Positions 1,117-23,256 are shown, counted from the stretch's first letter. The stretch is 64,000 bases of DNA from an uncultured Chloroflexia bacterium (GCA_963813535.1 CAWEZH010000002.1:160001-224000), one strand, 5' to 3'. Made by a program: numbers and translations. The notes: generated by a model not told the origin, from the sequence alone.

Positions 1117-1124
1117 AAATCACG

Positions 1125-4080: not shown

Positions 4081-4134
4081 GCGGACGGCGGGATTGATCC
4101 GGTTCGTCCCGGGACCAACGGAGGAGGAGATCGC

Positions 4135-5223
4135 ATGGCCGGGCAGTTTCGACCACGAGCGGTGTTCCAGTTGCAGCGGGATGCGAAACATCCGATCGGG
4201 TCGCGATTGGGCGGCGTCAACTGCAACCCCACCGCGGGTGCCACGCTCGTCGGCTTCGTCACGTGTGGTGCCAAGCGGACGACGGGTGCCGCTGTACGCG
4301 AGCTTACGAACGATACCGAGGGCGGGACCGTCCTCAGCACCGTCGCTGCAGCACTGCGCCGGGGTTTCGGGGTCGAAATCGACGTCGATACCGGGTCGTT
4401 CGATCGGATCATCAAGGCCCTCGACTCGCGTCGTGGCGTGACGCTCAGCGGGTCCAGCATCGCGACCCGCGGGACGCGGTTCCAGGCCAGCGAGACGTTT
4501 GACGGCAACCATCAGTGGGCCCTGACGGACATCCGCAAGGGGGATGGTGGGCGTCTCGAGATCCTCGTGTTCGATCCCTTGGCTGACGGCCGACGCCGGG
4601 GCATCGCTATTTCGCCGATGTGGATCCCGGTGGGCATCGTCCGCGAGTTCGCGGGCAAGCTCGACCTCAGATCGAAGGCGGAAAAGGCGGCGAAGCGGCC
4701 TCGCCGACCGCTGGGCATCGGTCGGGCGACGTACGGCTTGACGGAGGTCGTCGCCTGCGCCAGCAAGAAGGCACCGGTACCGGGTGTCCGGTTGCGCGCG
4801 GGTGCATCACTCGTGAACGGCCAGGCAGGGCGCGACCGAGTGATCGGGGTGGCCGTCGGGCGGATCCGCGAGCGGCCGACCACGACGTCGGACATCGTCG
4901 GCCGCAAACGTGCCGGCGACCCGTTCCGGGCGTGCCAGCGCATCCGCGGTCAGCGTGTCGCGGGCGACCCGATCTGGCTCGGCGACCGCACGGGCGAGCG
5001 ATGGATGCATGCGTCGTTGTTCAGAGCCATCAAGCAGGAAGGCGCGGAACCCGGGCTCGACCAGGTCGGGGAGGACCCTGAGGCCGCTGCTCTTCCGGAT
5101 GCGGCAGGCGATCAGGGCACCGACGACGAGGTGCTCGAAGGGTTCGAGGACGGCGTGGACGAGCAGGTCGTCGACGAGGTTGCGGCCGAGTCGAGCGAGA
5201 CCGTGACTACCGGTCAGGACTGA
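4135..5223 (+). CDS. Putative papain-like (C39-like) peptidase with SH3-like domain and acidic tail
   Basis: RBS GGAGGAG. Q...VNCNPT, GNHQW, ILVFDP fit a Cys-His-Asp order. RIRERPTTTSDIVG...RWMHASL is SH3-like. Confidence 0.55.
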   Translation: MAGQFRPRAVFQLQRDAKHPIGSRLGGVNCNPTAGATLVGFVTCGAKRTTGAAVRELTNDTEGGTVLSTVAAALRRGFGVEIDVDTGSFDRIIKALDSRRGVTLSGSSIATRGTRFQASETFDGNHQWALTDIRKGDGGRLEILVFDPLADGRRRGIAISPMWIPVGIVREFAGKLDLRSKAEKAAKRPRRPLGIGRATYGLTEVVACASKKAPVPGVRLRAGASLVNGQAGRDRVIGVAVGRIRERPTTTSDIVGRKRAGDPFRACQRIRGQRVAGDPIWLGDRTGERWMHASLFRAIKQEGAEPGLDQVGEDPEAAALPDAAGDQGTDDEVLEGFEDGVDEQVVDEVAAESSETVTTGQD

Positions 5224-5302
5224 CCGTCGATCGGGTTCCACGGTTGTCGGGGTGGGTACCATCGAACGAGAACGGCCTCGACTGACAGACGGGGGAGGAA
5301 CC

Positions 5303-7093
5303 ATGGCAGACGTCCGAGGCAACCCCTGGGAACACGATCCAGGCCCACCCTCGGGGAGCGGCTGGGCGGAGGTCTTCGCCGATACCCCCAACTATCGCGG
5401 ACTCGGCAACGAGGTCGTCGGGCGCGAAGCGTTTCGCTGGCACCACGGTCCGATGTTCTACCGCGGTCGCCTGGACGGTTCCGCCAAGGTCATGGTGGTC
5501 GGGCAGGAGGGTGCCCAGGACGAATCGCTCGCGCACCGTTCCTTCACCGGCGGGACCGGTGCCCGGATGCAGCATCTGCTGCGGTTCCTCGGTCTCGATC
5601 GTTCGTACCTGTTCGTGAACTCGTTCGTCTACCCGATCTTCGGCCAGTACACGCTCGACCTCCGGAAGCTCGCCCAGGATCCTCGATCGCCGATCGTGAG
5701 CCACCGCAACCGGATCTATGACAAGGCGGTCGTCGATGGCGACGTGCGCCTGGTCATCGCGGTCGGTCGTGCGGCGAAGGAGTCCGTATCCACATGGATC
5801 GAGTCGCACGGAGGGACGGCCCAACCCGAGGCCCTGCACACCGCGACGCTGGGCACCTTGCCGAACCGGGTTCGAGTCGTGGGTGTGGTGCATCCGGGAA
5901 GCGCGTCGGGGGGCTCGACCAGCGCTATCAAGGCTGACTTCGTCCGCGCCATCGGCCGAATCCGCGACTGGCTGCAGGCCGACGCGGGCTGGTTGCCCGC
6001 CGATCCCGGCATGACGCGGAACCTCACCGCATCCTTCCCGTATTCCTCGGCCCCGATCCCGTACCGGGACTTCCCGTTCGGGACATGCCCGCGCCTCGGT
6101 CGGGGCGGGACGTCAAGCAACCGCAGCGACGACCAGCGAGCGATCCGCCTGTTCTCGGCAGCCGGCAAGTACAACGCCGCAGGGGCCCACCTGACCGATC
6201 CGTCGTCGGCGACTGGGACCAACCAGGGGTACGACGACGACCCGGGCGACCTGCCGTATGAGCCGCCGCGCGCCAGTCCGCTCGCCTTCGACGCTGGCCC
6301 GCCGACCAACTTGGCGCGCCTGTTGATGGGGGCCGAGGCGGGCTTCGAGTGGCCTGACTTCGCCTCGCTCGGCGTAACGGCGCACCCGTCGTTCGGCGTC
6401 GGACCGATCTATCGCGGCCGGTTCGGAACCCTGAGCCTCGTCATCCTTGCCGATCAGCGGTCCGCGGACGACACATTCAGCGGCCGAGCGCTCACTGGCG
6501 ACGCGGGTCAACGATTCCAGGGCGTCCTGCGTGCGGCCGGGCTGACGAAGCGCTACCTGGTCATCCGCACGCTGCCCGTCGACACCATGGATCTCAGCGC
6601 GGCCAAGCGCTTGTCGTTGGTCGATCACCCCAAGGTGCGGGCGATGCATCGCGAGCTCCTGAGCCGCGTTCGGTCCGCGAACGGCGGGGTCACCGCGCTC
6701 CTCGCGATGGGCCCCGGCGCCCGGCGGCTCGCCCCGAATGTCGTCCCAGCCGGGCTCGACGTGATCGAGCTCGCAGCGCATGGGGAACCGGGATTCCAGG
6801 CGTCCTGGCAAGCGGCACTGGCGCAGCTCGCGGGGCGCACCTACACCAAGGACGTTGCCAATCCGAGCTTCGATGCCCCGACCACCCGCAGTCAGGTCCC
6901 ACGGATCGATCTGCCCTATGGCACGCCCCGGTGGGTCGGGAGCTCGGGGGATCGAGGCGTACGGCCGATGGACACCGACATCGACAAGCCAACGCCGGAC
7001 TATCTCAAGCTGTTCCTGCCAGCCTGGGTCGCGGGTCTCGCGGCGGCGCCGCTGAGCCCGGCGGAGCAGACCGCGGCCGACCAGCTCAGCTGA
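5303..7093 (+). CDS. Uracil-DNA glycosylase superfamily protein with two tandem UDG-like domains
   Basis: RBS GGGGAGG. Domain 1 VMVVGQEGAQDE..RSFTGGTGARMQHLL..VHPGS; domain 2 LVILADQ..RALTGDAGQRFQGVL. Confidence 0.75.
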   Translation: MADVRGNPWEHDPGPPSGSGWAEVFADTPNYRGLGNEVVGREAFRWHHGPMFYRGRLDGSAKVMVVGQEGAQDESLAHRSFTGGTGARMQHLLRFLGLDRSYLFVNSFVYPIFGQYTLDLRKLAQDPRSPIVSHRNRIYDKAVVDGDVRLVIAVGRAAKESVSTWIESHGGTAQPEALHTATLGTLPNRVRVVGVVHPGSASGGSTSAIKADFVRAIGRIRDWLQADAGWLPADPGMTRNLTASFPYSSAPIPYRDFPFGTCPRLGRGGTSSNRSDDQRAIRLFSAAGKYNAAGAHLTDPSSATGTNQGYDDDPGDLPYEPPRASPLAFDAGPPTNLARLLMGAEAGFEWPDFASLGVTAHPSFGVGPIYRGRFGTLSLVILADQRSADDTFSGRALTGDAGQRFQGVLRAAGLTKRYLVIRTLPVDTMDLSAAKRLSLVDHPKVRAMHRELLSRVRSANGGVTALLAMGPGARRLAPNVVPAGLDVIELAAHGEPGFQASWQAALAQLAGRTYTKDVANPSFDAPTTRSQVPRIDLPYGTPRWVGSSGDRGVRPMDTDIDKPTPDYLKLFLPAWVAGLAAAPLSPAEQTAADQLS

Positions 7094-7095
7094 CC

Positions 7096-10000
7096 ATGCC
7101 CGCTGCACCGCTTCCCCGCTATGGACTGCGCGGGCGGGTGGTCACGATGAACGCAGTCCGCGACGTCGTCGCGGACGGCATCGTGTGGGTCGCCGACGGC
7201 TCGATCAGCGACGTGACACCGGCGAACCAGACGCCGGCCGCCCACGCCGGGTCTCCGGTCGTCGCCACGGCCGGCACGATCTACCCGGGCATGATCGAGC
7301 TCCACAACCACCTCGCCTACAACACGCTGCCGTTGTTCAGGATCCCGCGGCTCTACACGAAGCGAGAGGAGTGGCAGGGTACCCGCGGGTACCGACGGTA
7401 TGTCAGCGGCCCCGCCGGGGTCGTCGCGTCGCTGCCGGACTTGATCCGGGCGACGATCCGCTACGTCGAGTGCAAGAGCCTGATCGCGGGCACGACGACA
7501 TCCCAGGGGCTGACCCTGCGCGCGGCCCCGATCAAGCACCTCTACAAGGGCATCGTCCGCAATGCCGAGCAACCGGACGCGGCCGGCCTGGACGCGGCGC
7601 GACCCAAGATCGGCGACGTGACCCCGGAGGGCCGTGAGTCGTTCCGCAAGTCGCTGGCTGGCAAGGGTGCCCGGATCGTCCACCTGGCCGAGGGGCTTCC
7701 GACCTCGAAGGCCCACGACCACTTCACCGACCTCCAGGCGCCCAACGGCACGTGGGCGATCGGGCCGAAGTTCGTCGGCATCCATTCGACGGCTCTCACT
7801 CCGTCCGACCTCGCCATCGTCGACCAGCTGGGCGGATCGATCGTCTGGTCGCCGTTCAGCAATCTCGCCCTGTATGGCGGGACGACCGACGCCAAGACCG
7901 CCATGGATCTCGGGATCAAGGTCGCCCTCGGCTCTGATTGGTCGCCGACCGCGAGCAAGAACCTGCTTCATGAGCTCAAGGTCGCGCGCATCTGGAGTGA
8001 CGATCAGCAGCTCGGCTTCACGGATCGCCAGCTCATCGAGATGGTGACCGTGACGCCCGCGGAGATCCTCGGCTGGCACGGTCGTCTGGGCTCGCTCGAG
8101 CCTGGCAAGCTCGCCGACATCACGGTCGTTTCCGGCAAGACGGGCGAGCCGTATCGCCATCTCGTCGACGCGACCGAGTCGGACATCCGCGTCGTCGTCA
8201 TCGGTGGGATCGCCCGCTACGGGACGCCCGCGATGCTGGCGAGACTCAGCCCTGTCGATGAGCAGGCCGACGTCGCCGGCAAGCCTCGGGCGTTCCATCT
8301 CGACGTGCACGATCCCGATCCGGTCCTGGGTCCCATGGGACTCACCGACGCGACCGCGACCCTAGCCGATGCGCTCGCGCACATGCCCGAGCGCGCCGCG
8401 GCCATCGGGTCCGTCGAGCTCGGTGTCGTTGCCGCCCAGGCCGTGGCCGGCGCGGACGCGGACGAGCGCTGGTTCCTGGAACTCGACCAGCCACCCATCG
8501 CCGGCGTCTCGGCGACCCTCTTCGACGGCATCGCCCCGGCATTGCTGGACGTCGTGATCGGCGCCGAGAGCTTCGCGTCGATCGCCATTGCCCTCAAGCT
8601 CGATCCCCTAGCGACCGAAGGCGACGACGCGTTCTTCGACATGCTGGCCAACCTCGAGAACCTCCCGGCAGTCCTGCGGGACACGCTGCCGGGCCGCTAC
8701 GGCGAGGTGCCGCGGGCTCCCACAGAGGGGGTCGGGCTCGAGGACGATGACCTGGCGATCGCACCTCTACCGCTGTCGGAGTTGCTCGAGCGTGCGGGCG
8801 ATCTGACCCTCGCCGATCGACGGCTCATCGTCCAGCAAGCGATGGTCCTGCTCGACCAGGCCTACGTCCATCTGCCGATGAAACGGGCGAGGTACGCGGC
8901 TGATCCGCTGCAGCGCCTGCGACTGATGGCGCACCGGCTTGAAGCTCTGGCGCCGACCGACGAGCTCGGCCCCGAGAGCCTGTTCCATGAGGAGCTCATC
9001 GAGATCTTCACCGCCCTTCGTGACCTGCACACCCACTACGTCCCGCCCGAGCCGTACCGGTCGCACACGGTGTTCCTGCCGTTCCTCGTCGAAGAATGCA
9101 CGCGGGCGGGTCGGCTGCAGTACCTCGTGTCCAAGGTCGCCCACGGAGCCGAGCTCGACCCGTCATTCGCACCGGGGGTGGAGGTGACCCACTGGAACGG
9201 AACGCCGATCCGACGGGCCATCGAGCGCAATGCCGAGAATCAGAGCGGAGGCAACCGGGCGGCTCGGATGGCACGCGGGCTCGACGCGCTGACGATCCGC
9301 ACGCTCGGCCGCACAGCGCCACCGGATGAGGACTGGGTCGACGTGGCCTACCTGACCCCAGAGGGTGGCGAGGGACTGGTTCGCACCCGCTGGAGCACCT
9401 ATCAGCCGCTCGAGCCGTCGCCCTTCGGGGATCTCGAGCAGGCATTCGCCAGTGCGGTCCCGGTCAGGTCCGGCAATCGGGGCCGGCTCGGCGCGCTCGG
9501 TGTCGACGACCAGACCGCGACCGTCAACCTGGTCCGGCGCGACCTCTACGCTCGAGGCTGGCAGCGGACGGCAGCCTGCCGGGTCCGACGAACTGGTCAC
9601 CGAGCTGCCCGGGATCCTGCGCGCAAGGATCAGGGGGACGAGTGCGGGGGACGTCCTGCACATGCGGATCTTCACGTTCGTGGTCCCGGATCCCGGGGCG
9701 TTCGTCCAGGAGTTCGTGCGCCTCGTGCAACTCAGACCCAGCGTCGGCTTGATCGTCGACGTCAGAGGCAACGGCGGCGGCGACATCCGCGCTGCGGAGC
9801 GCCTGCTGCAGGTCATGACGCCCCATCCGATCGGACCCGAACCGACGCAGTTCATCGTCAGCCCATTGGTCCGTCGCCTGTGCATGGCCAACCAGGGTGG
9901 CCCGATCGACCTCACGTCCTGGGCGCCCTCGGTCGTCGATGCGGTGGAGACCGGTGCCACCTTCTCGACTGGGTTTCCGATCACGTCGGCAGTGGACGTG

Positions 10001-10648
10001 AATGACCTCGGCCAGGGCTACTACGGTCCGGTCGTCCTGATCACGGATGCCCGCTGCTACAGCGCCACGGACATCTTCGCCGCCGGATTCCAGGACCACG
10101 ACATCGGGCGGATCGTCGGGGTCGCCGAGCGTACAGGTGCCGGCGGAGCGAACGTGTGGACGCACCCTCTGCTCCGGGCGCTGCTACCCGACCAGGACAA
10201 TCCGCTCAAGGAGCTTCCGAGACAGGCATCCTTCCGCGTGGCGGTACGCCGCACGACGCGCGTGGGGTCGCATGCCAGCGAGCTCCTCGAGGACCTGGGT
10301 GTCTTCGCTGACACGGTGCATGCCATCACGGACGCCGATCTGCTCGAGGACAATCGGGACCTGATCGAAGCCGCCGTTGCCGCGATGCAGGGGCGCGCGA
10401 CGAGGCGACTGGTGGCCGACGTGTCGCCGGCGGGCGATGGCGTGACGATCGACGTGGCCACGACCAACCTGGACCGGGTCGATGCCTATCTCGACGGTCG
10501 CCCCGTTGCTTCCGAAGACGTGCAGGACGATGAGTGCACGTTCGTCCTTCCGCACGCGATGATCAGCAACGGCGGGGAGGTGCGGCTGGAAGGGTTCCAA
10601 GGTGGCACGCTGAGCGCCGCGCGGCGACTCATGATCCCGATCGGATGA
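7096..10648 (+). CDS. Amidohydrolase (deaminase-like)-S41 peptidase fusion, frameshift ~9560
   Basis: ELHNH, HLAEG, GIH, LGSDWSP, GKLADI in N-half. S41 motifs IVDVRGNGGG, CYSATDIF, TGAGGANVW in ORF 9365-10648. The S41 N-terminal helices (YVHLPMKRA) are in frame with the amidohydrolase. Confidence 0.8.
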
Positions 10649-10683
10649 GGACCGTCGACCACCGCGCCGACCTGATGGGGGCA

Positions 10684-11022
10684 TCAGCCCTCGGGTTCGG
10701 CCTCTTCGTCGCCCCACGATCTTCCCTCGCCGATCCGCGTCCGGCGCGATCGCTGGAATGCCGCGGACTGGCGCAGGTTCCATGCCTGCACGCCCATTCG
10801 GGCGACCTCGTCAAGACCGCCCAGGTCGTCCGGAACGGGGCCTTTGAACATCCGCACCGTCTCGGGCGTTTCGGCCGACCCGGCGGTCCCGCTTTCCGCG
10901 AGCTCGACGACCAGTGCCCGATCGCCGTATGCCTGGACCGGGCGACCGCCAGCGGCGGCGAGCCACGCCCGAACATCGTCGGGAGAAGCGGCGGGGGCCA
11001 GGACCACGAAGTACTCGGCCAT
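10684..11022 (-). CDS. Small protein homologous to the N-terminal (pro)domain of the divergent metallopeptidase
   Basis: VQAYGDRALVVEL / GLDEVARMGVQAWNLRQS..GEGRSWGD align by eye with LHRYGSRVLIGEV / GLSEAEAVGLAAWDLRVS..LDGQRWDA of the 11068 gene. Confidence 0.75.
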   Translation of the reverse strand: MAEYFVVLAPAASPDDVRAWLAAAGGRPVQAYGDRALVVELAESGTAGSAETPETVRMFKGPVPDDLGGLDEVARMGVQAWNLRQSAAFQRSRRTRIGEGRSWGDEEAEPEG

Positions 11023-11067
11023 CGATCACACGTTCTGCCGGACCACGGGACGCTCGGAGGATAGGAC

Positions 11068-12527
11068 ATGGCGAAGCGTGACGAGATCGCCAAGCAGGGA
11101 CTCATCATCCTCGACGCCAAGGGCGTCGCCGACATCCGCGGGACGGCGGGGCGGCTCGAGGACGTCGGTGTGAGCGTCCTCCACCGCTACGGTTCGCGGG
11201 TCCTCATCGGTGAGGTTCCACCAGCGGGTGGCCGGGGCGTGGCTGCCGAGCGGGGCGTGCGCTCGTTCCACGCGGGCGCCGTGCGTGCCAAGCCTCGTGG
11301 CCTGAGCGAGGCGGAGGCCGTCGGGCTGGCGGCGTGGGATCTGCGTGTTTCGCGGCGATACGCAACCGCCAAGGCGAAGCGGCCACTCGACGGTCAGCGC
11401 TGGGACGCCGCGGGCGTCACCCCACTCATCCCGCCAGACGGCCCGCTCATGACCCATGTCGACGATGAGGGGCCGGCCCGCGCGTTCCGCGCGGTGGGCG
11501 ACGAGACCAGCGCCTATCTCATCGGCGCCGTCGCCGTGGGAGCTCATCCTCGTCGAGGGTCCCACAGCGGACCTGCAGTTCAGCGAGGCCGAGCGCACGA
11601 AGGTCGTCGCCGAGGTCCAGGAGGGATTGACCTGGCTCGGCACCCGGGAACCCAAGGCCGGTGTCTCCTTTGCCTACGACATCCGGATCGTGCAGGTGGA
11701 TCGAGCCCCGAACCCGGCGCTGAGCGGCTACGAGCCGCTCGAATCGCACTGGCGCGACCCGGCAATGGCGAAGCTCGGGTTCGCCCCGAACTTCGGGGGC
11801 GTCAAGGAGTACGTCAAGGCCATCCGCGCCAACCTCGCCACGAAGTGGGCCTACGTCGCGTACTTCACGAAGTACCCGGTCCAGCACTTCGCCTATGCCT
11901 CCAAGCCGCGCCTGGTCATGCACTACGCCAACGACGGCTGGGGGCCCGACAACATCGACCGCGTCTTCACGCACGAGACCGGCCACATCTTCGGCTGCCC
12001 GGACGAGTACTCGGCAAGCAACTGCTCGTGCACCACGAAGGCGGGCTATCTGCGTGAGGTCAACGGCAACTGCCAGAACTGTGCGACGTCCTTCACGCCG
12101 TGCCTCATGGCGGGGAACACCTGGGAAATGTGCGCCTTCACGCCTGCCCACCTTGGCTGGCGCGACACCGATGGTGATGGCGCGCTGGACCCGGTCGATC
12201 CGGTCGGGAACCCGAACCCCCTGATCGATCTGGGCGGGTTCTGTTCGCGGTTCCCGTTCATCTGCCGGCTGGTCGGCCTCGGCGCCACAGCCGGCGCTGT
12301 GGCCGGCGACGATCCGGGCTGGCGGTCCGGCGTCACCGGTGCGATCCCCGCCGAGCCGCGGGGCGAGGCGGTCCCGGTCGAGTTGCTCCGCCAGGTCCTG
12401 ACCGCGGATGAGATGGCGCGCGTGGAGGCCGCGGTCCGTGCCGAGGAGGATCTGCTACCTCGAGGCCCTCGAGCGCAAGCTTCGGACCGCAGCGGACCAG
12501 ATCGCCCGCGAACGAGCCAGTCGCTGA
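11068..12527 (+). CDS. Metzincin-type zinc metallopeptidase (HExxHxxGxxD) with N-terminal prodomain; frameshifts ~11541 and ~12452
   Basis: RBS GGAGG. HETGHIFGCPDEY, Met-turn CLM, Cys-rich segment, DTDGDG Ca-binding-like motif. Reconstructed end YLEALERKLRTAADQIARERASR* at TGA 12525-12527. Confidence 0.75.
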
Positions 12528-13024
12528 TGGATACCGCGGAGATCGAGCAAAAGGTCCTGGCGACGTCGGCGAGTGGTAATGACGCTCAGCTCGGCGGACC
12601 GGTCCGCGTCCTCGACACGGCCGAGGGCGCCGACGGTGGCTCGACGTACCAGGTGTCGGCGTCCCTGCTCGTACCGATCGACGAGGACGATCCGGACCTG
12701 ACCGGGGTGTCCATCGCGGTCCCTGTGACGGCCACCGTCGAGATCGACGACGACGGGGCGATCGTCGGGATCGATGTGCCGGTCGACGCGGCCGCCCAGC
12801 GCGAGGCGAGGTCGTTCACTCGCAACCTGATCGCCCGTGGGGCTGTCAGCGGGCTGGCGGCCAGCGGACCCGTGCGACGCGGTCCTGGGCTCGCCACCCG
12901 CCCGACGCACGAACTGACAGTCGACGAATTCGGTCGGCGGGTGATCCGCCGGACGGGATTTACCGCGACTAGCGCGCCGGCCATGCCGGAAGACACGCGC
13001 GCCCACGATGGAGACAGCCCGTAG
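12527..13024 (+). CDS. Small protein homologous to the C-terminal domain of the downstream metallopeptidase
   Basis: TGATG coupling at 12525-12529. EARSFTRNLIARGAV..PTHEL..RRTGF vs QARAFARSLVANGDV..PSHEI..VRVGF in the 13041 gene. Confidence 0.7.
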   Translation: MDTAEIEQKVLATSASGNDAQLGGPVRVLDTAEGADGGSTYQVSASLLVPIDEDDPDLTGVSIAVPVTATVEIDDDGAIVGIDVPVDAAAQREARSFTRNLIARGAVSGLAASGPVRRGPGLATRPTHELTVDEFGRRVIRRTGFTATSAPAMPEDTRAHDGDSP

Positions 13025-13040
13025 CGGCAAGGAGCGTCCC

Positions 13041-14531
13041 ATGGCGACCATCACGTACGTCCCGAACGACCCATTGGCGAGTGGCGGACCACCCACCAGA
13101 TCGACGAGGGCCAGCAACTACCCACGCGGTGACATCGCCAAGTTCGATATCCAGCCGACGGCGGTCGCCGGCAAGTTCGACCCGCACACGCCGGAGTTCC
13201 AGTACTGGCAGGCCAAGCTTGGGCTGATCGCCGGGCTGCGTGCCTGGCGCCAGATCGATGGCCGCTTCATGCGACGCTGGTTCGGGGACCAGAACCAGCT
13301 AGCCGTGCGCACTGACGCCGGCGACGACCTGAACGCGTTCTACGATCGCGACAGCCTGCAGTTCTTCTCGCACACGTTCGGCGGGGTGACAGTCAACTCC
13401 GCCGAGAGCGTGGACGTCGTGACGCATGAAGAAGGTCATGCCTTCCTCGACGCCATCCGGCCGGACTTCTTCGATGTCCCGTTCATCGAAGTCGGAGCGC
13501 TCCACGAGGCGTTCGGCGACTGCATGGCGATCGTCACCGCGCTCGAGGACCGCGCCATCCGGGACGCCGTCCTGGCGTCCACCCCGGACCTCGCGGCCAA
13601 CCACTTCGTGGAAAGCCTGGCCGAGGCGCTCGGCGACGCGATCGCGCGGGAGTTCGGAGCGGGCAGCGTCGACGTCGGAGCGCTCCGCCATGCCCTTAAC
13701 ACGTTCCAGTACGCTGATCCGACCTCACTGCCACCGGATGCCCCCGCGGACCAGCTCTCCGGTGAGGTCCACAGCTTCGCCCGGGTGTTCAGTGGCGCTT
13801 TCTACGACGTCATCCGGAACGTCTACATCGGCGGCACGCGGAAGGATTCGCTCGCGCTGCGGAAAGCCTCCCGGACGGCGGGCAAGCTGCTAGTGGCAGC
13901 CATCCGGATCGTGCCCGCCACGCCGAGCACGTTCCGCGGCGTCGGCCAGCGGATGCTCCAGGTCGACGTGTCGAAGAATCGCGGAGCCAATACGGCCGCG
14001 ATCACAGAAGCGTTCGCGGGTCATGGGATGTCACTGCCCGCCCCGGCCACGTCCCTGCCGGTCCCCCTGCCCAGGCAGACCCGCGCCGGGGCGGCTCCGG
14101 AGCTACGCCGGCGGCTCGCGGTCCCCCCAGGCACCAGGATCGAGATCACACCCGTCGATTCCGACCTGCATGGCGAGATCGCCCACGTCAGCGCGTACCG
14201 GCCGTTGCCCCTCGATGGCGCCGGGCTTCAGGGCGTCCGGATCATGGTGCCGGGCATCGCGCGTGTGGCCACCACCCGCCGCGGCCGGTCGATCACCGGC
14301 GTCCTGGGTGAGGTCACCTCGTCCGAGGGTGATGCGGCGGTGCAGGCCCGTGCCTTCGCGCGCTCGCTGGTCGCGAACGGCGACGTGCGCACCGCCCCAC
14401 GGGCGGCCCGACGGCTCGCCGCCGCTCCGCAGCCGCCGACGGCTCGGGTGCCGCACAAGCCCAGTCACGAGATCCGACTCGTCGGCGGCGAGCCGACGCT
14501 CGTCCGGGTCGGCTTCTCCCACCGGCACTGA
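13041..14531 (+). CDS. M36/M4-like zinc metallopeptidase, no signal peptide
   Basis: RBS AAGGAG. NAFYDR, VVTHEEGH, LHEAFGD, EVHSF. Confidence 0.85.
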   Translation: MATITYVPNDPLASGGPPTRSTRASNYPRGDIAKFDIQPTAVAGKFDPHTPEFQYWQAKLGLIAGLRAWRQIDGRFMRRWFGDQNQLAVRTDAGDDLNAFYDRDSLQFFSHTFGGVTVNSAESVDVVTHEEGHAFLDAIRPDFFDVPFIEVGALHEAFGDCMAIVTALEDRAIRDAVLASTPDLAANHFVESLAEALGDAIAREFGAGSVDVGALRHALNTFQYADPTSLPPDAPADQLSGEVHSFARVFSGAFYDVIRNVYIGGTRKDSLALRKASRTAGKLLVAAIRIVPATPSTFRGVGQRMLQVDVSKNRGANTAAITEAFAGHGMSLPAPATSLPVPLPRQTRAGAAPELRRRLAVPPGTRIEITPVDSDLHGEIAHVSAYRPLPLDGAGLQGVRIMVPGIARVATTRRGRSITGVLGEVTSSEGDAAVQARAFARSLVANGDVRTAPRAARRLAAAPQPPTARVPHKPSHEIRLVGGEPTLVRVGFSHRH

Positions 14532-14534
14532 CCG

Positions 14535-16902
14535 TCAACCGGCCTCCGGCTCCAGCCGCATGGCCGGGATGGCCGAAGAACTGGTAGGCCATGTAGGTCG
14601 ACGACGTCGTCTCGGGGGTGTCGCGGAATGCGGCGCGCTCCGTGCGCATGATCTCGGCGGGTGCCTCGCCACGCATCGCCCGCTCGTAGAAGCGGATGGC
14701 GATGTCTCGAGCGAGTCGGTCGTCGATCGACCACAGCGGTGCGATGACGCCTGCTGCGCCGGCGAACAGGAAGGCCGCCGCCAGACCGGCATGATCGCCG
14801 AGGAGTTGGCTGCCGCGGCCGACCTGGCATGCGTTCAGGAAGACGAACGGATGGCCGCGCAGCGGGATCCCCTTGACGGCCAGGGGATCGAGGGCAGAGC
14901 CGTCGACGAGGATCAGGCCATCCCTGGCCTCCTCGGCCTCGTAGGTGCCGTGCACGGCGAAGTGGATGACATCGGCGGCCGGACGCCCCCTCAGGAGGTC
15001 GAGGATGCCGCCGATCGTGGCATCCACCGGCATCCCCTCGTAGATGCGCACGATGTCAGCGGCCTCGGCCTCCGCCTCGGCAAGGCGCTGCCAGCCTGGC
15101 AGCTCGTAGACGCCCGATACGGCGGCGACACCCTGGACGGCCACGCTCATGGGCGGCGGGAGGGCGGGCCGCCGCTGGCCGAGGACCCAGCGCCCGACCG
15201 TCGCCTGGGCGGCAAGGAAGGGCGGGAGGTCGGGATCGAGCGGCGGATCCACGACGGCGAGCTCCCACGGGACGTACGGCTCGGCCGAGAGGAACAGGAT
15301 GGACGGCGGCCGGGCGCCATTCCGTGTCGCGATCTTTGACAAGGCGTTCCAGAACTCGATCGGCAGCTGCTCGGCGATGGTCAGCCCGATCCCGCGCAGG
15401 GCGACGAACTGCGTCGGACGACCCTCCACCTCCTGCATCTCGTCGACGATCCGACGGAGGTCCGCCGCAGGATCGCCGCCGATATCGATACGGATGGGGG
15501 CGTCCGGCATGTCGATCGTCGGATCGGCCGCGAGCAACTGGACGAGGAGGCCACCGCTCGCCTCGGATTCCGCACGCTCGATCCGTACGGTCAGGTCGGG
15601 CGCCACCTGGCCAGCCGGCAATGACAGGTCGACGCCGGGGGCAGGTGGCTGGGCCGGAGCCGACGCCAGGAGATCGGCCGACCGGACCAGGGCGACCGAA
15701 CGCACGGCGAGACCGATCGGATTGCCGTCGATCGAGTACATCGCGCGGATCGAGGTCGACATGACCGGTGCAACCTGGGCATCCGGCACGAGCTGGATCG
15801 TCACGGACGGGTAGGGGGCCTCCGCTGTGACCGGCAGGTCGATCCGCCAGGACGCGCCGGCGTCCGCGAGCCGGAGGCCGTCGGCAACGAGTTGGATGGT
15901 CATCGTGTACGCGCCGACGCTCGATGGCGGTCGGTGGAGCGCCTCCCCGACGACGCGTGCGTCCGGGCGGTCGGCGAGCCCCACGACGAGATCGAACGGC
16001 TGCTCGGCGACGACGGCATCCGGACAGGACAGCCGGGCGTAGGTCGTCCGCGGCGGATCAGCCTCGCTCCCGATCGTCGCGCCGCCGGCGCCGATCGTGG
16101 CACCGGGCCCGACGGCTTCGGGCTCAGGCACGGTCGTCGGCCCGGCGGGTCCACCGGGGCTTGGCGGGGGGCTTGGGGGGCGTGCGGCGGGCGGACCGGC
16201 TGCCGCTTACGGCCGCGCTCGGATGCCGCCTGGGTCAGGCCGCCGACGACCTGGTTGAGCACCCCGCTGATCGCCCCCGGGATCGCCGTCCAGAGGACTG
16301 CCGAGGTCGGCGTGATCCCCGTGATGCCGGCCTGCTGGGCGAACAGCAGGAGGCCGATCCCTATCACCACGCCACCCACGACGGCGAGCACACCGTTGCG
16401 GCGCCCCACAGTCAGGAGCGCACGGAGCGCCATGAGGACGCCGACCACGATGATCCCGATCGCCACGAATCCGGCCGGGGTCCCGAGCGGCGAGCGGCCG
16501 GTCACGTTGACCCAGCCGTGGACCTGGCAGACATCGGTCGCCGCGGTGACTTCGTACAGACCCGACCCGAACCGCGCGTAGTCGGAGACGGGAAGCGTCT
16601 CCGGACCATTCGGTGGTGGGGGCGATCGGCTCGTCGGCGATCGTCCAGGTGGTCGGCCAGACGCTGATCGCGATGGTCGCCCGGGTCACCGGTTCGAGGG
16701 ACTGGCCGAACACCCGTGCCACGGCATCGGCGTCGATCGGGATCGCCCGATCCGGACTGTCGGCATCGCCGAGGGAGTGCCGGTCGATGAAGACGACACA
16801 CTGTCCGATCGTCTGGGCACTGACCGGCGCGGAGAGGATCATGACGATGGCCACGCCGAGCAGGAGAGCGGCGGCGGACCGCACGCGGGGACGGGGCCGC
16901 AT
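14535..16902 (-). CDS. Membrane-anchored CHAT (caspase-like) protease: signal peptide, extracellular domain, TM helices, Pro linker, C-terminal CHAT; about three frameshifts
   Basis: Joined from ORFs 16207-16902, 15900-16505, 14314-16131 and the 14535 stop. VPWEL, VIHFAVHG, FVFLNACQVG, IAPLWSIDD. Confidence 0.7.
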
Positions 16903-16918
16903 CAGCTAGGCATCGGCG

Positions 16919-19270
16919 TCATCGCCAGCTCGGGTCGATGCTGTCTCCCCCTAAGGACTTTGTTAGGTCTTCTTCCTTCCCGGTGGCCAGAACACGCACC
17001 AGGATGTGCCACTCGTCTCCGACGCGGCGGTAGAAGGCGATCCGGTCACCTTCGGGCGAATAGACGGGACCGCCCTCGTCGGCCGAATCGTCGGTGATTC
17101 GGCTCTCCTCCCTCGTTTCGACGTCGATCGACCAGATGTCCCGTCTCGCGCGAGGCTCGTTGCGCGTGAACACGAGTCGCCCGCCGTCGGGGTGCCATCT
17201 CGGGTTGCGGTCGACGGTACCGCCGGACGTCAAAGGCTCGGGATCGCGACCTGGTACCCAGATGTAGATCGATAAGACATCGTCATTGCTATCGCGGTTC
17301 GACGTGAACGCCATCCGCGCGCTATCCGGGTCCCAAGCCGGTGAGCTGTCATCGGCGCCTCGTTGCCCCACGACCGGTTTCGGTAGACCAGCCCTGAGCG
17401 AGGAAACGCGCCAGATGTCGTTCAGCTGCTTGTTCGTCTCGTCGCGGTCGCTGTTGAAGTAGATGAACTTGTTCCGTGCGAAGTCCGGGACGCGGTCGTC
17501 CGCAGGGCCACTCGTCATCGGGGTCTGATTCCCACCATCCTTGTCCATGGTGTAGATGTCACCGGTGCCGTTGTTGATCCGCGTGAATGCGATGTGCGTC
17601 CCATCGGGCGACCACCTCGGCCACCGGTCCGGAACGCTGTTATCGGTGAGCCGGTCCGGCTTGAGGGTGTCCGGATCGATGAGGTAGATCTCGGAGTCCT
17701 CGCCGTCGGTACCGTCCGGGTCGAACTCGAACAGGATCCCCGTTCCGCCCGTCGGTGGAGCGATGCTCGCTGACGCGGAAGCGTCGCTTGGGGGACCACC
17801 CGTCGGTTGGGTATCCGATGCCGAGAAGGAGGCGGATGCAGTGCCGGAGCCTGGGCTCGCGCTTGCCCCGCCCCCGCCTCCGAAGATGTTGACGGCCAGG
17901 AGGAGCACAAGCAGGACGGCTCCGCCGCCGGCCGCGAGGATCGCGATCGGCCGCCAGGGCGGCGGCGGCGGTGGCGGCACCGGCGTGGGACGCTCAGGTT
18001 CCGGTGCTTCAGGCTTCGGAGGTTTGAATAGCTCCTCGAGTTCATCCTGGCTGAGCTCGGGGACTGTCTCCGGTGGCTCCGGTTCGGGAGCTTCCGGCTC
18101 GGGCGGCGCCGGTGGTACGGCGGTACCAGTATCGGCGGCGGGGGCGCCTCGACCACTGGGGCCGCCGCGACGTTGAACAGCACGCCATCCGGTGTCTGGA
18201 GGTACAGGACCGGCGTGCCCCATTCCAGCGTGTCCTCGAAGGCGGTGGCGAGACCCTTCCGTGCCTCGGTGAGCGCCGTGTCGACCGGGATGCCCCGCGC
18301 GACCGCGCCATAGAACGATCGGCTCAGTTCGATCGCGGCCTCATCGGTGATCTCGTACTGCATCGCCACGACGGCCGGAGTGCCCTTGCGGACGAGCGTG
18401 CCCGCCGTGCTCGAGAACACGTCCGTGACGTCGCTTCGACCGGTGTCGCACGCGTTGAGGACAGCGAGGCGAAGCGGTTCGTGGTCCCCGAGGATGCGTC
18501 CGAAACTCGTGGCCCGCTTGTAGTCGGCCTTGCCGTCGGGGCGGGCGAAGGCAACGATGCCCTCCTTGCGGTTCTCGTCGAAACCGCCGTGGCCGATGAA
18601 GTGGAGGATGTGCCAGGGGCCCTCCCACAATGCCTCCTGGAAGTCCTGCCACGTCTGCCCTGGGATCCAGGTGAGCTCGATCAGGCCCTTGGCCTGTATC
18701 GACTCCATCGCGGCGGTGAGACGGGTTCGCTCTCGCTCCACATCCAGCCCGTCGAGGTCCGAAGGACTGACCGCGACCGCCAGGATGCGGATCGGCGGCG
18801 TCACGAGGAGCGGCTCCATGCTCGACGGCAATCGGGATGTAGCGGACCAGCGGCGAACCGGTCGAGAGCGTGACGAAATCGCCGCGAACCGGGTCGAAGA
18901 GGTACTCCCACGGGAGCGCCGCGAGTTCCGCGTCGTCGCACCGGAACTTGATCCGCATGCCGGACTGCTGGTGCTTTGCCTCCTGGCGGCTCGCCTCGTA
19001 GCGCGACAGGACGTCGCCAGAGAACAGTGCGGTCCACAGTTCCTGGCCGAACTCCTGGACCGTGCGGCTCTCCGGTGATGAGATCCGGCGGCGCGTCCCG
19101 CTCGAGCGGAGGAGCGCGATCTGGAGGGCCTGCAGCCGGTTGGTGAGCGTCGGCTGGTCGAACGGGAAGCGCATCGATGACGTCGCCTCGCCAGCCGGCG
19201 ACCGCACCTTGACGGTGTACGACCCCGCTTCGCCGCCAGTGACATCGATCTCGAAATCGAGGTACTGCAC
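16919..19270 (-). CDS. CHAT protease with Pro-rich linker, single TM and C-terminal TolB/PD40 beta-propeller; two frameshifts
   Basis: GTG 19270 after GGGGAAGG. LPWEYL, HILHFIGHGG, VLNACDTG, EWGTPVLY; TM IAILAAGGGAVLLVLLLAV; repeats PRWSPDG, PAWDPD, PRWHPDG, PVYSPEG. Confidence 0.8.
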
Positions 19271-19370
19271 TGGTCGCCTTCCCCGCGCGCCCGATGTCAA
19301 GGCTACCCCGGGTCGCAAGCAGATCCGTTACAGGGGCGGTGCTATCGTGGCCACTCAGCGAGGTGGAGGC

Positions 19371-21377
19371 ATGCCTGCGGACGGATCCGGCTCCACGTCC
19401 TTCGTCGTCATCCGGACCGATTGGTCGGTCCTGACGGCCCTCCGGGCGCTCGACGCGACTGACGCGACCCACGTGATCATCGCGCACCACGGCGATCGTG
19501 GCGACGAATACCACCTGTTCACGGCCGACGACATCTTCGCCGAGCTCCAGACTCATCCGACCGAGGCCAACCTCACCTCAGTGCTGCCTTTGGCCGAGTG
19601 GCCGCCGACGCCGACGATCGCGCCGGGCGATGCGATCGGCGATCGGACGATGGCGGTCGTCCTCGATCGTGGCCGCGCGGTCGGTTTCATCGATCGCAAC
19701 GCCCCGAGCGTTCCAGGCCCGACGGCAGAGACCGTCCAGCCGGGTGATGCCGGCGGCCCCGGTGGGTGGACTGGCGAGGAGGTCGTCGAGCCGGTGCGAC
19801 GTGGCGGTGGGCACCGCGCGAAGCCGCCCGCATCGGCCGGCGATGGCGAACCTGTCGCTGCGAATGGCGGACCCGACGCCGAGGATGGCGGGACCGAGCG
19901 ATCGCTCGAGGCGGAATTTCCTGACTCGGTCGTGGTCGACACGGTGGAGTGGCTGCTGGTCTCGATCGTGAACGCGAAGCCGACAGCGTCGGGTCTCGCC
20001 ATCGAGGTCGCGGCGGGCGAATCGATCGACGTCCTGGTCCAACCGCGGCGCGGGTTCAGCGTGGAGGGTGACGCTCAGGGCACGCTCAAGGTGCCGGCCT
20101 CCGGCGAGAGCCTGCCGCTCCAGTTCAAGGTCAAGGCCCTCGACGAGGGAAAGGGCCTGATCCGCGTCCTGGCCTTCCACCTCGGCGAGCCGCTCGGCGT
20201 CATCACCCTCGAGCCGACGGTGAAGGCCGCGTCCAGGAGCCGGGCTCGCGGACGGACGACCTCGGCGCCTGCAGCGAGGAAGGGCCAGGCGCTGACGGCG
20301 CCGAGCCCGCAGGTCCCGGACATGTCGTTGTTCATCGAGGAGCGCGAGGCCGGCGGAGCCCTCGAGTTCGTCATCCGCCTGACCGCCACGGACCCGGCAC
20401 TCGACCTGAACCTTCGTCCGTTCGGGCCGTTCCGTCTCGAGGTCGAACCCGCCGAGTTCTTCGGGACGTTCTTCCAGGAGATCGACGAGCTGCCCCTGGC
20501 CACGAAGGAACAGCGCGAGGTCGCCGAGCGACGGTTGGCGGCCAAGGGTGCGTACCTGACCGAGTCCCTGATGCCCCCGGAACTGCGTGAGGCGCTCTGG
20601 CTGGTTCGCGATCGGATCGCCTCGGTCATCATCCAGTCCGAGGAGCCCTGGATCCCGTGGGAGCTCTGCCGCCTCATGGGCCGTGACGGCGATCGGGTGA
20701 TCGAGGGTCCGTTCCTGTGCGAAGCCTTCGCGGTCACGCGCTGGTTGCCCGGTGAGGGGTTCAAGCGCCCCCTCCGGCTCACCAACATGGCCCTGATCGT
20801 CCCGGCCGATTCCGGCCTGCCGCTCGCGCCCGAGGAACGCGACTTCGTCCTGTCGCTGGCCGGGGACGGTCGTGCCGTCACGGCGATCGATCCGAAGTTC
20901 GCCGACGTACAGGACGCGTTCGCGGCCGGCGTCTACGACGGCTGGCACTTCACCGGGCACGGCGCAGCGCGCGATTCGAACCCGGATCGTTCGTCGATCA
21001 TCCTGAGCGGCGAGGAGTCGTTCACGCCCGAGGACCTCAGTGGCCAAGCCGCGAACCTGGGCATCCCGCATCCGCTGATCTTCATCAACGCCTGCCAGGT
21101 CGGCCGCGGCGGGATGGGCCTGACCGGTATCGGTGGCTGGGCGCGACGCTTCGTGCAGACCGGGGCCGGCGCGTTCATCGGGGCGTACTGGTCGGTCTAT
21201 GACGTGTCGGCCTTCGCCTTCGCCAAGGAGGTCTATGCGCGGCTCCTGGACGGGATGCCGATCGGTGATGCGGTCCGCGAGGCACGCGCCAAGGTCCGTG
21301 AGGATGGTGACCCGACGTGGCTCGCCTACACCGTGTTTGCCGATCCGCTGGCCACCGTCGAGTCCGGACCGAGCTAG
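19371..21377 (+). CDS. Soluble CHAT (caspase-like) protease with possible degenerate CBS pair and beta-sandwich domain
   Basis: RBS GGAGG. IPWEL, GWHFTGHG, FINACQVG, FIGAYWSV, WLAYTVFADP. Confidence 0.85.
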   Translation: MPADGSGSTSFVVIRTDWSVLTALRALDATDATHVIIAHHGDRGDEYHLFTADDIFAELQTHPTEANLTSVLPLAEWPPTPTIAPGDAIGDRTMAVVLDRGRAVGFIDRNAPSVPGPTAETVQPGDAGGPGGWTGEEVVEPVRRGGGHRAKPPASAGDGEPVAANGGPDAEDGGTERSLEAEFPDSVVVDTVEWLLVSIVNAKPTASGLAIEVAAGESIDVLVQPRRGFSVEGDAQGTLKVPASGESLPLQFKVKALDEGKGLIRVLAFHLGEPLGVITLEPTVKAASRSRARGRTTSAPAARKGQALTAPSPQVPDMSLFIEEREAGGALEFVIRLTATDPALDLNLRPFGPFRLEVEPAEFFGTFFQEIDELPLATKEQREVAERRLAAKGAYLTESLMPPELREALWLVRDRIASVIIQSEEPWIPWELCRLMGRDGDRVIEGPFLCEAFAVTRWLPGEGFKRPLRLTNMALIVPADSGLPLAPEERDFVLSLAGDGRAVTAIDPKFADVQDAFAAGVYDGWHFTGHGAARDSNPDRSSIILSGEESFTPEDLSGQAANLGIPHPLIFINACQVGRGGMGLTGIGGWARRFVQTGAGAFIGAYWSVYDVSAFAFAKEVYARLLDGMPIGDAVREARAKVREDGDPTWLAYTVFADPLATVESGPS

Positions 21378-21398: not shown

Positions 21399-22202
21399 TC
21401 AGGCGGGCCGCCGGCGCTCCTGGAGGACGTGGAACGCGGCCATCGCGACCGTGAGGAAGATCAACCCGCCGATGTATGAGCTGACGGTCCGCCCGTTCAG
21501 TTCTCCATAGAAGAGGGCGGCCGTGACCAGAAGGGCGACGCCGTTGACGATGAACAGCCGAGCCGCCGTGCGGATCTCGTCCCAGTCGCGAGCGAAGGCC
21601 ATGGTCCCGCACCAGACCGACCAGCCGAGGAACCACGCGGCGACGATGCGCGCGTCCAATGGGTTGAGCTCCCAAGCCCAACGGTGCGCTGCGAACTCGG
21701 GGTTGATCAGGAGGAGCAGGCCATGCATGAGCAGCAGCCCCGTCACGAGGACGAGGAACCGCTTGAACCACAGGAGGATGGGGCCTCCGCTGACGGGGGC
21801 CTCGGCTCGCATGATCCCGCGCGGGATCAGGTAGATCATCACCACCGGCTCGAAGATGTAGAGGATCACCCAGATGTGGGCCGTCGGCGGCGTGAACTGT
21901 GACCAGGTGAATTCGTCGATGTGCCAGAACGTGGCGAGCAACAGCGTGCCGGTGAAGGCGAGGTTGCCCCACACGATCCAGCGGAGCCGGATCCAGTCCG
22001 CCTGGCGGGCGACATTGAGGAAGAACAGTGTCCGGAAGATGTAGCCCGCGCCGATGAAGGCTTGGGCGTAGCGCGGCTGGACGTCCCACGCAAAGTATTC
22101 GGGCACGAACTGGGGGAACACGAGCATCCACACGGCGAACCACGCGGCCGCGAGCGCGCCGAGAACGCCCCAGAGAACCTGTGAGCGAGGTGGCCAGCTC
22201 AT
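21399..22202 (-). CDS. Polytopic membrane protein with internal two-fold repeat
   Basis: About 8 hydrophobic segments. FPQFVPEYFAWDVQP..FIGAGY..ADW repeats as NPEFAAHRWAWELNP..IVAAWF..RDW. Confidence 0.75.
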   Translation of the reverse strand: MSWPPRSQVLWGVLGALAAAWFAVWMLVFPQFVPEYFAWDVQPRYAQAFIGAGYIFRTLFFLNVARQADWIRLRWIVWGNLAFTGTLLLATFWHIDEFTWSQFTPPTAHIWVILYIFEPVVMIYLIPRGIMRAEAPVSGGPILLWFKRFLVLVTGLLLMHGLLLLINPEFAAHRWAWELNPLDARIVAAWFLGWSVWCGTMAFARDWDEIRTAARLFIVNGVALLVTAALFYGELNGRTVSSYIGGLIFLTVAMAAFHVLQERRRPA

Positions 22203-22209
22203 CGAGGCT

Positions 22210-23031
22210 TCAACGCTCGACATCGATCGTGAAGCTGGCCGTGTCGAACAGCCATTCCTTCGGGCGACCGAACAGCCCGGCCTCGCGAACCCAGCACGTG
22301 ATGCCGATCCGTAGTTGTTTCGTGGCCTTGGGCACGAGCAGTGTCTGGAGCAAGGCCTGGTGCCCGGCGATCTGCTGGTCCTGGGCGTAGAGGCTCCACT
22401 CGGCGCCGCCATAGCCGTCGCCGGGGCCGGAGATGACCTTGGGCACGGAGACGGTGAAGCTGATCGACAGCTTCGCGTTCTCATTGATGCTCGCGCCGAC
22501 CTTGGCCGCGGTCAGGGTCACGCCGGGCACGGTGCTGATCGCGGCCTGGAATTCCTTCGGCACCTCGAGCGATCCGTCGAGGCCGATGTCGACGCTCGCC
22601 TCGGCCCCGACTTTGGCGATGTCGAGCAGCTCGGTCGACGGTTGGACGTCCACGGTGTCGGCCTGGACGTCGAACAGCTCGACCTTGTAGCCCATCCCCC
22701 AGACCTTCGCTGGCTTGCGGCCGGGAGCCGGCTGCGCGGTCACCCCATGCGACAGCAGCACCGGGAACTTCCGCCCGAGTCCGGCCACGATCATCGGGTC
22801 GGGGGTCTTCTCGGCGAGCTTCCACAGGCGGCGCAGGTCGATCGCCCGCGGCGCCGGCATCGCCAGGCTGAACGGCGCGTTCGACGGTAGAGCACGCGTC
22901 GCCTCGTCACCGCCCCGCCGGACCGGACCCGCCGCCTTCAGGGCGTCGGCGGCCATCTCCTTGAGCACGCCGTCCTCGACGTCTTGTGGGTTGCCTTGCG
23001 CCTCGAGGGTCCGCGTTCCCCGCTCCGCCAT
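22210..23031 (-). CDS. Hypothetical beta-rich protein (possible beta-pore-forming fold)
   Basis: RBS GGAG, ATG 23031, coding-like codon usage; alternating amphipathic strands VGAEASVDIGLDGSLEV and KVGASINENAKLSISFTVSV. Confidence 0.65.
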   Translation of the reverse strand: MAERGTRTLEAQGNPQDVEDGVLKEMAADALKAAGPVRRGGDEATRALPSNAPFSLAMPAPRAIDLRRLWKLAEKTPDPMIVAGLGRKFPVLLSHGVTAQPAPGRKPAKVWGMGYKVELFDVQADTVDVQPSTELLDIAKVGAEASVDIGLDGSLEVPKEFQAAISTVPGVTLTAAKVGASINENAKLSISFTVSVPKVISGPGDGYGGAEWSLYAQDQQIAGHQALLQTLLVPKATKQLRIGITCWVREAGLFGRPKEWLFDTASFTIDVER

Positions 23032-23256
23032 CTTGTCTCCTCCCGCTCGGCGCCGCACCGAGACGCTACCAGGCAGACAGTTCGCGCAGGCCCCGACCCC
23101 TCTGACGGCCATGCCGAGACCGCCCAGTCTAAGCCTGCATGTCGAGTGTTCCCGAGTCGCTGCGAGTAGGGCGTGCGCACTTGCGACGTCGAACTACGCT
23201 GGCAACTACTGCGGAAGCTGCACCACCGGGCCGCCGCCGCAAGAAGGGACGCGACC

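Follow-up and report, generated by a model that had tools for sequence, protein, structure and literature searches.

What does a protein of 273 residues, belonging to no named family, do beside caspase-like CHAT proteases? The question arises from 64,000 nucleotides of an uncultured Chloroflexia bacterium (the whole stretch, referred to here as the window), for which an initial annotation had proposed a protease-activated beta-pore-forming effector with a co-transcribed membrane protein. Because relatives of the protein repeatedly adjoin caspase-like proteases and its predicted fold is that of staphylococcal alpha-hemolysin, it is likely a suicide pore that a protease triggers in bacterial immunity.

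The effector gene and its island

The effector gene, P0001, occupies 22210..23031 on the minus strand and encodes the 273 residues that had initially been read from it. A GGAGG ribosome-binding site lies close 5' of its start (Shine-Dalgarno-like GGGAGGAG at 23037..23044, minus strand, ahead of the ATG at 23031), and a search of the window's own genome found the gene in single copy. Seven nucleotides past its stop begins P0002 (21399..22202, minus strand), a 267-residue membrane protein of no known family with eight hydropathy peaks, in agreement with the initial description of a gene for about eight transmembrane segments; an alternative in-frame ATG, the sole start in 2/5 relatives, overlaps the effector gene by 14 nt. 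The pair converges on the third CHAT gene, as had been noticed: CHAT3 (19062..21377, plus strand) ends at 21377, leaving 21 nt between the stops. In the window, the effector shares no operon with a CHAT gene, CHAT3 being convergent and the membrane gene lying between the two.

The genome is that of a soil-type bacterium (3.28 Mb, 68% GC), and its nearest relatives carry the labels Chloroflexia or Limnocylindrales. It has only three CHAT genes, all in this island and within 8 kb. CHAT3, which a domain search divides into TCAD7-like, DUF7363 and CHAT parts, has its His and Cys motifs intact. CHAT2, joined to a PD40 beta-propeller (16919..19318, minus strand), is spread over three overlapping ORFs with the His and Cys motifs present, and forms one open frame in a relative (L004); CHAT1 (14314..16131, minus strand) has both motifs too. 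The rest of the island (265..14531, plus strand) encodes an alpha/beta-hydrolase, M36/M4-like and M12-like metalloproteases, an MBL-fold hydrolase, a UDG-like protein, an amidohydrolase and an S41 peptidase. Between 265 and 4080, the alpha/beta-hydrolase and the MBL-fold hydrolase flank the M36-like metalloprotease (PADLOC matches to LmuA, RTasMBL and Avs1a), and two known types of protease-activated effector (alpha/beta-hydrolase and MBL) are found in the same island as P0001. The uracil-DNA-glycosylase-superfamily domain belongs to a 613-residue protein at 5252-7093. Several island genes (6931-10648, 11068-13024, 14314-19318) are split across frames; since the breaks differ among relatives (L001-L004, L010), this suggests assembly indels.

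A predicted hemolysin-like fold

To judge from its models, P0001 very probably has a fold of the alpha-hemolysin/leukocidin type. Two AF2 models were built with AlphaFold, the deeper alignment raising pLDDT from 77 to 84.8 and pTM from 0.71 to 0.83. With Foldseek they gave 74 and 121 matches at E<=1e-3, hemolysin-family throughout those listed, and a search keeping the top 1000 returned the same family in 50/50 of the matches listed. The best E was 1.6e-6, and TM scores ranged only from 0.24 to 0.43, the highest being that of the NetF pre-pore. A Foldseek-independent search of 48,161 chains placed hemolysin-family chains at ranks 1-5, with the NetF pre-pore at the top (Z 12.5, rmsd 3.4, 178 residues aligned) followed by four more members at Z 10.0-10.8. 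Outside the toxins, the highest-ranked chain was that of a cohesin (Z 9.8 over 129 residues), about 3 Z below NetF, and the Vibrio cytolysin pro-toxin (1xez) reached Z 9.5 with 197 residues aligned; the families ranked alike when the weaker model was the query. In the Atlas, which we use for leads only, Leukocidin is the named cluster nearest to P0001 (0.88), and the feature score against aerolysin is 0.83. Aerolysin, ETX/MTX2 and gasdermin do not occur among the matches listed in five fold searches.

The initial idea of a beta-pore-forming fold is therefore supported in its general type, a beta-PFT-like fold whose amphipathic hairpin could insert, and needs correction as to the family, alpha-hemolysin/leukocidin being the one found among the matches listed. 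The check that it had called for, AlphaFold followed by Foldseek, yields hemolysin-family matches, the cohesin and Ig-like ones covering only about 130 core residues versus 165-187 for hemolysin monomers; the model is not the plain Ig-like fold without a hairpin that would have spoken against it. Pore forms of the hemolysin family align over about 146-154 residues; since the soluble monomers align over more, the folded insert of the model resembles a pre-stem. At most 187 of the 255-300 target residues align and the connecting loops are short; the rim may be mostly missing. An aromatic/basic loop at residues 250-260 (G-L/W-F-G...W; 22252..22284, minus strand) is a candidate for a reduced membrane-contact rim.

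P0001 has 62 close homologues, and a profile search returned 197 representatives at 50% clustering, the best 150 of which were listed. The family alignment comprises 121 full-length members, mostly of 245-300 residues, in which P131 is invariant and P61, G153 and W212 are near-invariant; one frame-broken member was dropped for the hairpin statistics. The predicted pre-stem (residues 131-197 in alignment and model; 22441..22641, minus strand) starts at this invariant proline, and the span counted from it is 67 residues versus 44-51 in hemolysins. Amphipathic strands at about 141-157 and 171-199 are joined by a 13-residue, Pro-bounded segment (158-170) with helical hydrophobic spacing. Both of the alternating strands quoted at the outset are present, and their alternation goes far beyond chance: over 120 homologues the mean z is 2.8 and 3.05 against shuffles, with z>2 in 82%, as compared to -0.25 to 0.92 in three core control segments and 2.15 and 1.71 in true hemolysin stems. 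The alternating stem is a family-wide trait, found across 120 sequences of about 20-95% identity.

The N-terminal half departs from the early picture in one respect. The first 50 residues or so had been taken for low-complexity sequence, which their entropy refutes (3.57 bits versus 3.63-3.86 for other 50-mers). Residues 1-34 (22930..23031, minus strand) are conserved, with a predicted beta-strand (6-9) and an acidic helix (21-34), and pLDDT is 78-91 over residues 1-40; they make a candidate pro-segment or latch. N-terminal variability is confined to a loop of lowest confidence, residues 35-52 (22876..22929, minus strand), where the N-terminal sequence that had been singled out, GPVRRGGDEATRA, is found at residues 35-47 and where candidate cut sites fall between R39 and G40 and between R46 and A47. 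In structural alignments, residue 3-4 of the model is the first to align, versus residue 23 of alpha-hemolysin. Since the first strand is N-terminal to this loop and falls on the cap in the alignments, a cut would nick an internal loop and would not have to release an inhibitor. P0001 is predicted to lack a signal peptide: by a crude hydropathy test, an N-terminal hydrophobic window above 1.9 occurs in 1/120 members versus 6/10 secreted hemolysins.

At the level of sequence, the likeness to hemolysins is slight, with identities of 6-15%. Against a ten-sequence hemolysin profile, built from 10 of the 11 fetched hemolysin-family stretches with one left out, hhalign gave a probability of 0.6-0.7%, which is not significant, and a score of 18.65, to be compared with a mean of 11.6-11.9 and a maximum of 17.1 in 120 shuffles. 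Single toxins gave 7.6% (LukF-PV) and 0.9% (LukS-PV). The best of these alignments place W111, Y115 and P131 on the W-x-x-x-Y motif and the invariant Pro ahead of the stem. The leukocidin family found no match in the window's own genome, its control likewise finding none. No meaningful Pfam match occurs in the 121 family members (PF07968, PF01117 and PF03318 included: 0/121), no PADLOC or NCBIfam family matched, and the family profile matched none of the PDB sequences. With no significant homology to hemolysins at the sequence level, we call P0001 hemolysin-like in fold and keep it out of PF07968.

Relatives, neighboring proteases and a candidate cut site

The effector gene is present in 7/301 genomes of the class and in 4/15 others of the genus; samples of the same phylum gave matches in 1/401 and 2/341 genomes, and those of a second phylum one clear match in 301 and 341 genomes. 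This distribution is patchy, as in defense genes. Three alignments used as queries found no homologues in viral contigs, nor did two far-subfamily queries in plasmids, and no longer fused forms (609-2000 residues) appeared among 7998 candidates, which is weak evidence. Two weak genome matches (E about 1e-3 to 1e-4) were dropped, one being a giant repetitive protein and the other a short ORF 5' of a CHAT-STAND-TPR gene without apparent homology.

The neighborhoods of the effector were compared in 28 loci, 11 from genomes and 17 from metagenomes (a group of 30-40% identity). Five of the genome loci are the same island, with effectors 85-95% identical, and one of them (L003) has an extra CHAT-NTPase gene directly 5' of the effector. 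Outside the island, a CHAT gene lies immediately 5' on the same strand in 4/6 genome loci: a CHAT in L005, hydrolase-CHAT fusions in L007 and L009, and a TPR-CHAT in the acidobacterial L011. The two others (L006, L008) have no CHAT within 10 kb and both retain the RG motif discussed below. Among the metagenome loci a CHAT gene is immediately adjacent in 8/17, four of which show the CHAT domain (a TPR-CHAT upstream in L035, a CHAT protein directly downstream in L038, L039 and L049), while in four (L034, L036, L040, L043) the contig breaks off inside this gene, whose preserved beginning is homologous. No CHAT was found in the remaining 9/17, in which the flanks are long in L045 and L047 only; the four of these placed in the tree form one clade, and the others look alike by sequence.

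This standalone clade (L042, L044, L045, L047, probably with L037, L041, L046, L048 and L050) has a long Pro-rich N-terminal loop, and in L042, L045 and L047 its effector follows a VWA-CoxE gene, itself preceded in L047 by an AAA gene. Such effectors have possibly been repurposed or are activated in trans.

More distant homologues include a short-stem subfamily. The far-subfamily profile led to one such protein (G314; E 1.1e-4, hhalign 79.8%), encoded 102 nt before a CHAT-NTPase gene; used as a query, this protein led in turn to BPHY_RS36205 of Paraburkholderia phymatum (plasmid pBPHY02), which starts 1 nt after the annotated CHAT gene BPHY_RS36200. The latter two genes constitute a two-gene module of CHAT and short-stem effector (L074:2085-6561, NC_010627.1), with a RES-Xre toxin-antitoxin pair and a Tn3 transposase as neighbors. 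The short-stem pair aligns with the far subfamily at an hhalign probability of 94.5% and shows no profile similarity to hemolysins, and both homologues were found regardless of their context.

Outside the window's island, adjacency of effector and CHAT takes six different arrangements. Partners are fused to TPR, STAND, hydrolase and propeller domains, and the complete CHAT domains that were inspected keep the His and Cys motifs. With 3 CHAT genes in a genome of an estimated 3,000 or so, we estimate the probability of a chance adjacency at well under 1%. In another genome (G678, L069:7590-11382), the ORF immediately ahead of a CHAT-NTPase-TPR gene is short, encodes a single hydrophobic segment and is apparently a different small protease-linked effector.

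We scanned the 30 residues ahead of the core for dipeptide motifs against 500 shuffles, in near, mid and far groups cut by search rank. RG occurs in 23/25 near members (5.0 in shuffles), MG in 16/50 mid members (2.0) and [FL]G in 28/45 far members (13.3), each above all 500 shuffles, although kinship among members inflates these counts; among mid members, RG stays within the shuffled range (14/50, shuffle maximum 15). At the R46 position most close relatives have R-G, and P0001 has R-A. Dipeptide and neighboring protease were compared in the MG and R types: MG-type members sit before one clade of TPR-CHAT (helical-repeat) proteases (L034, L036, L038, L043), R-type effectors follow other CHATs, and L034 is of the MG type, yet placed among R-type members in the tree. 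These Arg-Gly, Met-Gly and Phe/Leu-Gly dipeptides resemble known sites of such proteases: one study describes a caspase-activated hydrolase cut at a conserved site between Arg and Gly (PMC12642450), and another a Runella gasdermin cut by its CHAT between Leu and Gly in an exposed loop (10.1101/2021.06.07.447441). The CHAT link proposed from the start is supported in this form, by gene adjacency and by N-terminal loop residues that could serve as a cut site; the accompanying idea of a terminal effector of the cascade stays an inference.

The motif PVRRG occurs in three island proteins, namely a small ORF before the M4-like protease (12869, plus strand), CHAT3 (19791, plus strand) and the effector (22926, minus strand). 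Of its eight genome-wide matches in coding-like ORFs, three fall in the island, a coincidence spotted post hoc, and it is possibly a shared cut site of island proteins. Hydrolase-CHAT fusions rich in ERG and DRG, many of them in loops, are found directly 5' of the effector in two loci (alpha/beta-hydrolase-CHAT, L007:6970-9954 and L009:6897-9818); they may be self-activating zymogens.

A probable latent pore, its alternatives and its known counterparts

Our models lead us to think that P0001 probably forms pores, and its gene context and loop motifs make activation by a CHAT fairly likely, CHAT3 being the first candidate among the three for cutting it. Taken as a whole, we lean toward a CHAT-activated, intracellular death pore of hemolysin fold, for which the switch would be cleavage at an X-Gly dipeptide of the N-terminal loop. 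Prediction and alignment give the monomer a cap beta-sandwich on which the amphipathic pre-stem lies folded back; the rim seems to be small, and a signal peptide is lacking. Its recurrent neighbors are sensor-fused CHATs (TPR, STAND, hydrolase, propeller) with intact His and Cys. A protease would nick loop 35-52, at R39-G40 or at R46, and thereby free or reposition the N-terminal strand and helix. Alpha-hemolysin and Vibrio cytolysin monomers assemble as rings, and their hairpins insert to form a beta-barrel; by analogy, P0001 could form a ring on the inner membrane to which each monomer contributes one hairpin. As with gasdermin, EACC1 and Pepco, the outcome may be abortive infection or programmed death of the infected or stressed cell.

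Other readings of the same data have to be considered. P0001 could be a non-lytic partner of CHAT proteases, a cohesin- or Ig-like sandwich whose hairpin serves polymerization or binding and which acts as adaptor, inhibitor or relay. Many cohesin, pilin and adhesin domains at Z 8-9.8, the lack of significant sequence homology to hemolysins and an apparently mostly absent rim would fit such a role; we nevertheless consider it unlikely, given that cohesin-type matches skip the insert that hemolysin monomers cover, and that a strict two-residue alternation marks both arms in 120 sequences, beyond what hemolysin stems display. An outward-aimed pore-former, meant for competitors or prey, set free when the cell lyses or by another route and matured by the island's metalloproteases, strikes us as quite unlikely. 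It has in its favor that the solved members of the alpha-hemolysin fold are secreted toxins, that the Vibrio pro-toxin is among the matches, and that proteases of M36/M4-, M12- and S41-like types are encoded in the island, L009 also having two papain-like genes downstream; yet the family is predicted to lack a signal peptide, its target-binding rim appears reduced, and the conserved neighbor is a TPR- or STAND-fused CHAT and not a metalloprotease. We regard as very unlikely a pore-former that is activated otherwise than by a cut in the N-terminal loop, be it by another cut or by binding, with some clades dispensing with a protease. The standalone clade, with its long Pro-rich loop, no clear motif and no CHAT nearby, speaks for it, as do a first strand that seems part of the cap and the activation of Pepco at its C-terminal tail (PMC12642450); against it, three subfamilies retain an X-Gly dipeptide within a loop that is not conserved elsewhere, and the MG type precedes one single TPR-CHAT clade.

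The membrane gene was initially seen as a partner of the effector, and the two could indeed form a two-part unit, with P0002 as membrane receptor or immunity protein. A 7-nt gap or 14-nt overlap is kept in five close relatives, but these five represent one island, and the P0002 family accompanies the effector in 5/28 loci only, all of them near-identical copies of this island; it is not in the available flanks of the other 23/28, several of which are short. The family, which has at least 374 homologues and matched no named family, occurs in 11/301 genomes, where the six copies outside the island are surrounded by metabolic genes and have neither an effector nor a CHAT within about 8 kb, and one genome has the effector and P0002 genes on different contigs. 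We therefore hold a two-part unit to be most improbable. P0002 is probably a passenger and probably dispensable for the effector. Two of its homologues (L065 and L066, in G092 and G050) have as neighbors, judged by eye, one gene for an oxidoreductase and one that is aminomethyltransferase-like, a hint that the 8-TM family may serve in metabolism.

Returning to the CHAT-activated pore, its significance would lie in a new and widespread class of immune executioner: an intracellular alpha-hemolysin fold, controlled by a sensor-fused CHAT through an X-Gly site in which the residue X varies with the partner protease, and opening a barrel in the cell's own membrane. For us, the arguments for and against so broad a claim are evenly balanced. 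If true, an intracellular, caspase-gated hemolysin fold would join gasdermin, Pepco and EACC1 as an executioner, many orphan TPR-CHAT and STAND-CHAT genes would gain substrates, and short-stem members could link immune pores to secreted leukocidins, which bears on a possible common ancestry of hemolysin-type toxins and immune pores. The Arg-, Met- and Phe/Leu-Gly subfamilies predict different CHATs, so that specificity is testable, and the two-gene module of Paraburkholderia phymatum STM815, a cultured legume symbiont, allows direct testing. A literature search, with supplements and most subscription papers out of reach, found no description of a hemolysin-fold effector activated by a CHAT; in particular, the main text of PMC7159879 contains 0 occurrences of hemolysin, leukocidin or aerolysin.

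Among known systems, the closest in structure is the alpha-hemolysin/leukocidin family (PF07968: Hla, Luk, NetB/NetF, delta-toxin, CytK, Epx). The predicted structure of P0001 shares with it the cap beta-sandwich, a conserved Pro before the amphipathic, Gly-rich stem, a conserved Trp after it, and a folded pre-stem. It differs in that a signal peptide and an HMM match are lacking, the rim seems mostly absent, the first strand is followed by an additional helix and loop, and the tip has an extra segment; its genes, moreover, are found in environmental bacteria, next to those of CHAT proteases. A parallel is offered by the pro-toxin of Vibrio cholerae cytolysin, of the same fold family, whose N-terminal pro-region is removed by proteolysis; this toxin is secreted, has lectin domains in an entry of 663 residues, targets host cells and is not known to have a dedicated CHAT.

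In its way of working, the nearest counterpart of the effector would be the bacterial gasdermin module, since 43/50 gasdermins adjoin proteases, often a TPR- or NACHT-fused CHAT (10.1101/2021.06.07.447441). The inhibitory piece of gasdermin is C-terminal and its palmitoylated Cys N-terminal, whereas the candidate cut site of P0001 is N-terminal and its only Cys is residue 246. Pepco, EACC1, MBL and alpha/beta-hydrolase modules likewise cause death once a linked protease has released them from latency (PMC12642450), and EACC1 loses an N-terminal inhibitory piece. Pepco and EACC1 have other folds and about 110-120 residues, compared to 245-300 in most of our family, and none of the families named in the available part of that source has a hemolysin fold. 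P0001 lacks the sequence match and secretion signal of a hemolysin, the N-terminal Cys and Pfam match of a gasdermin, and the size and family matches of Pepco and EACC1. What our models describe is a protein that would work like a gasdermin module built on a hemolysin-like fold.
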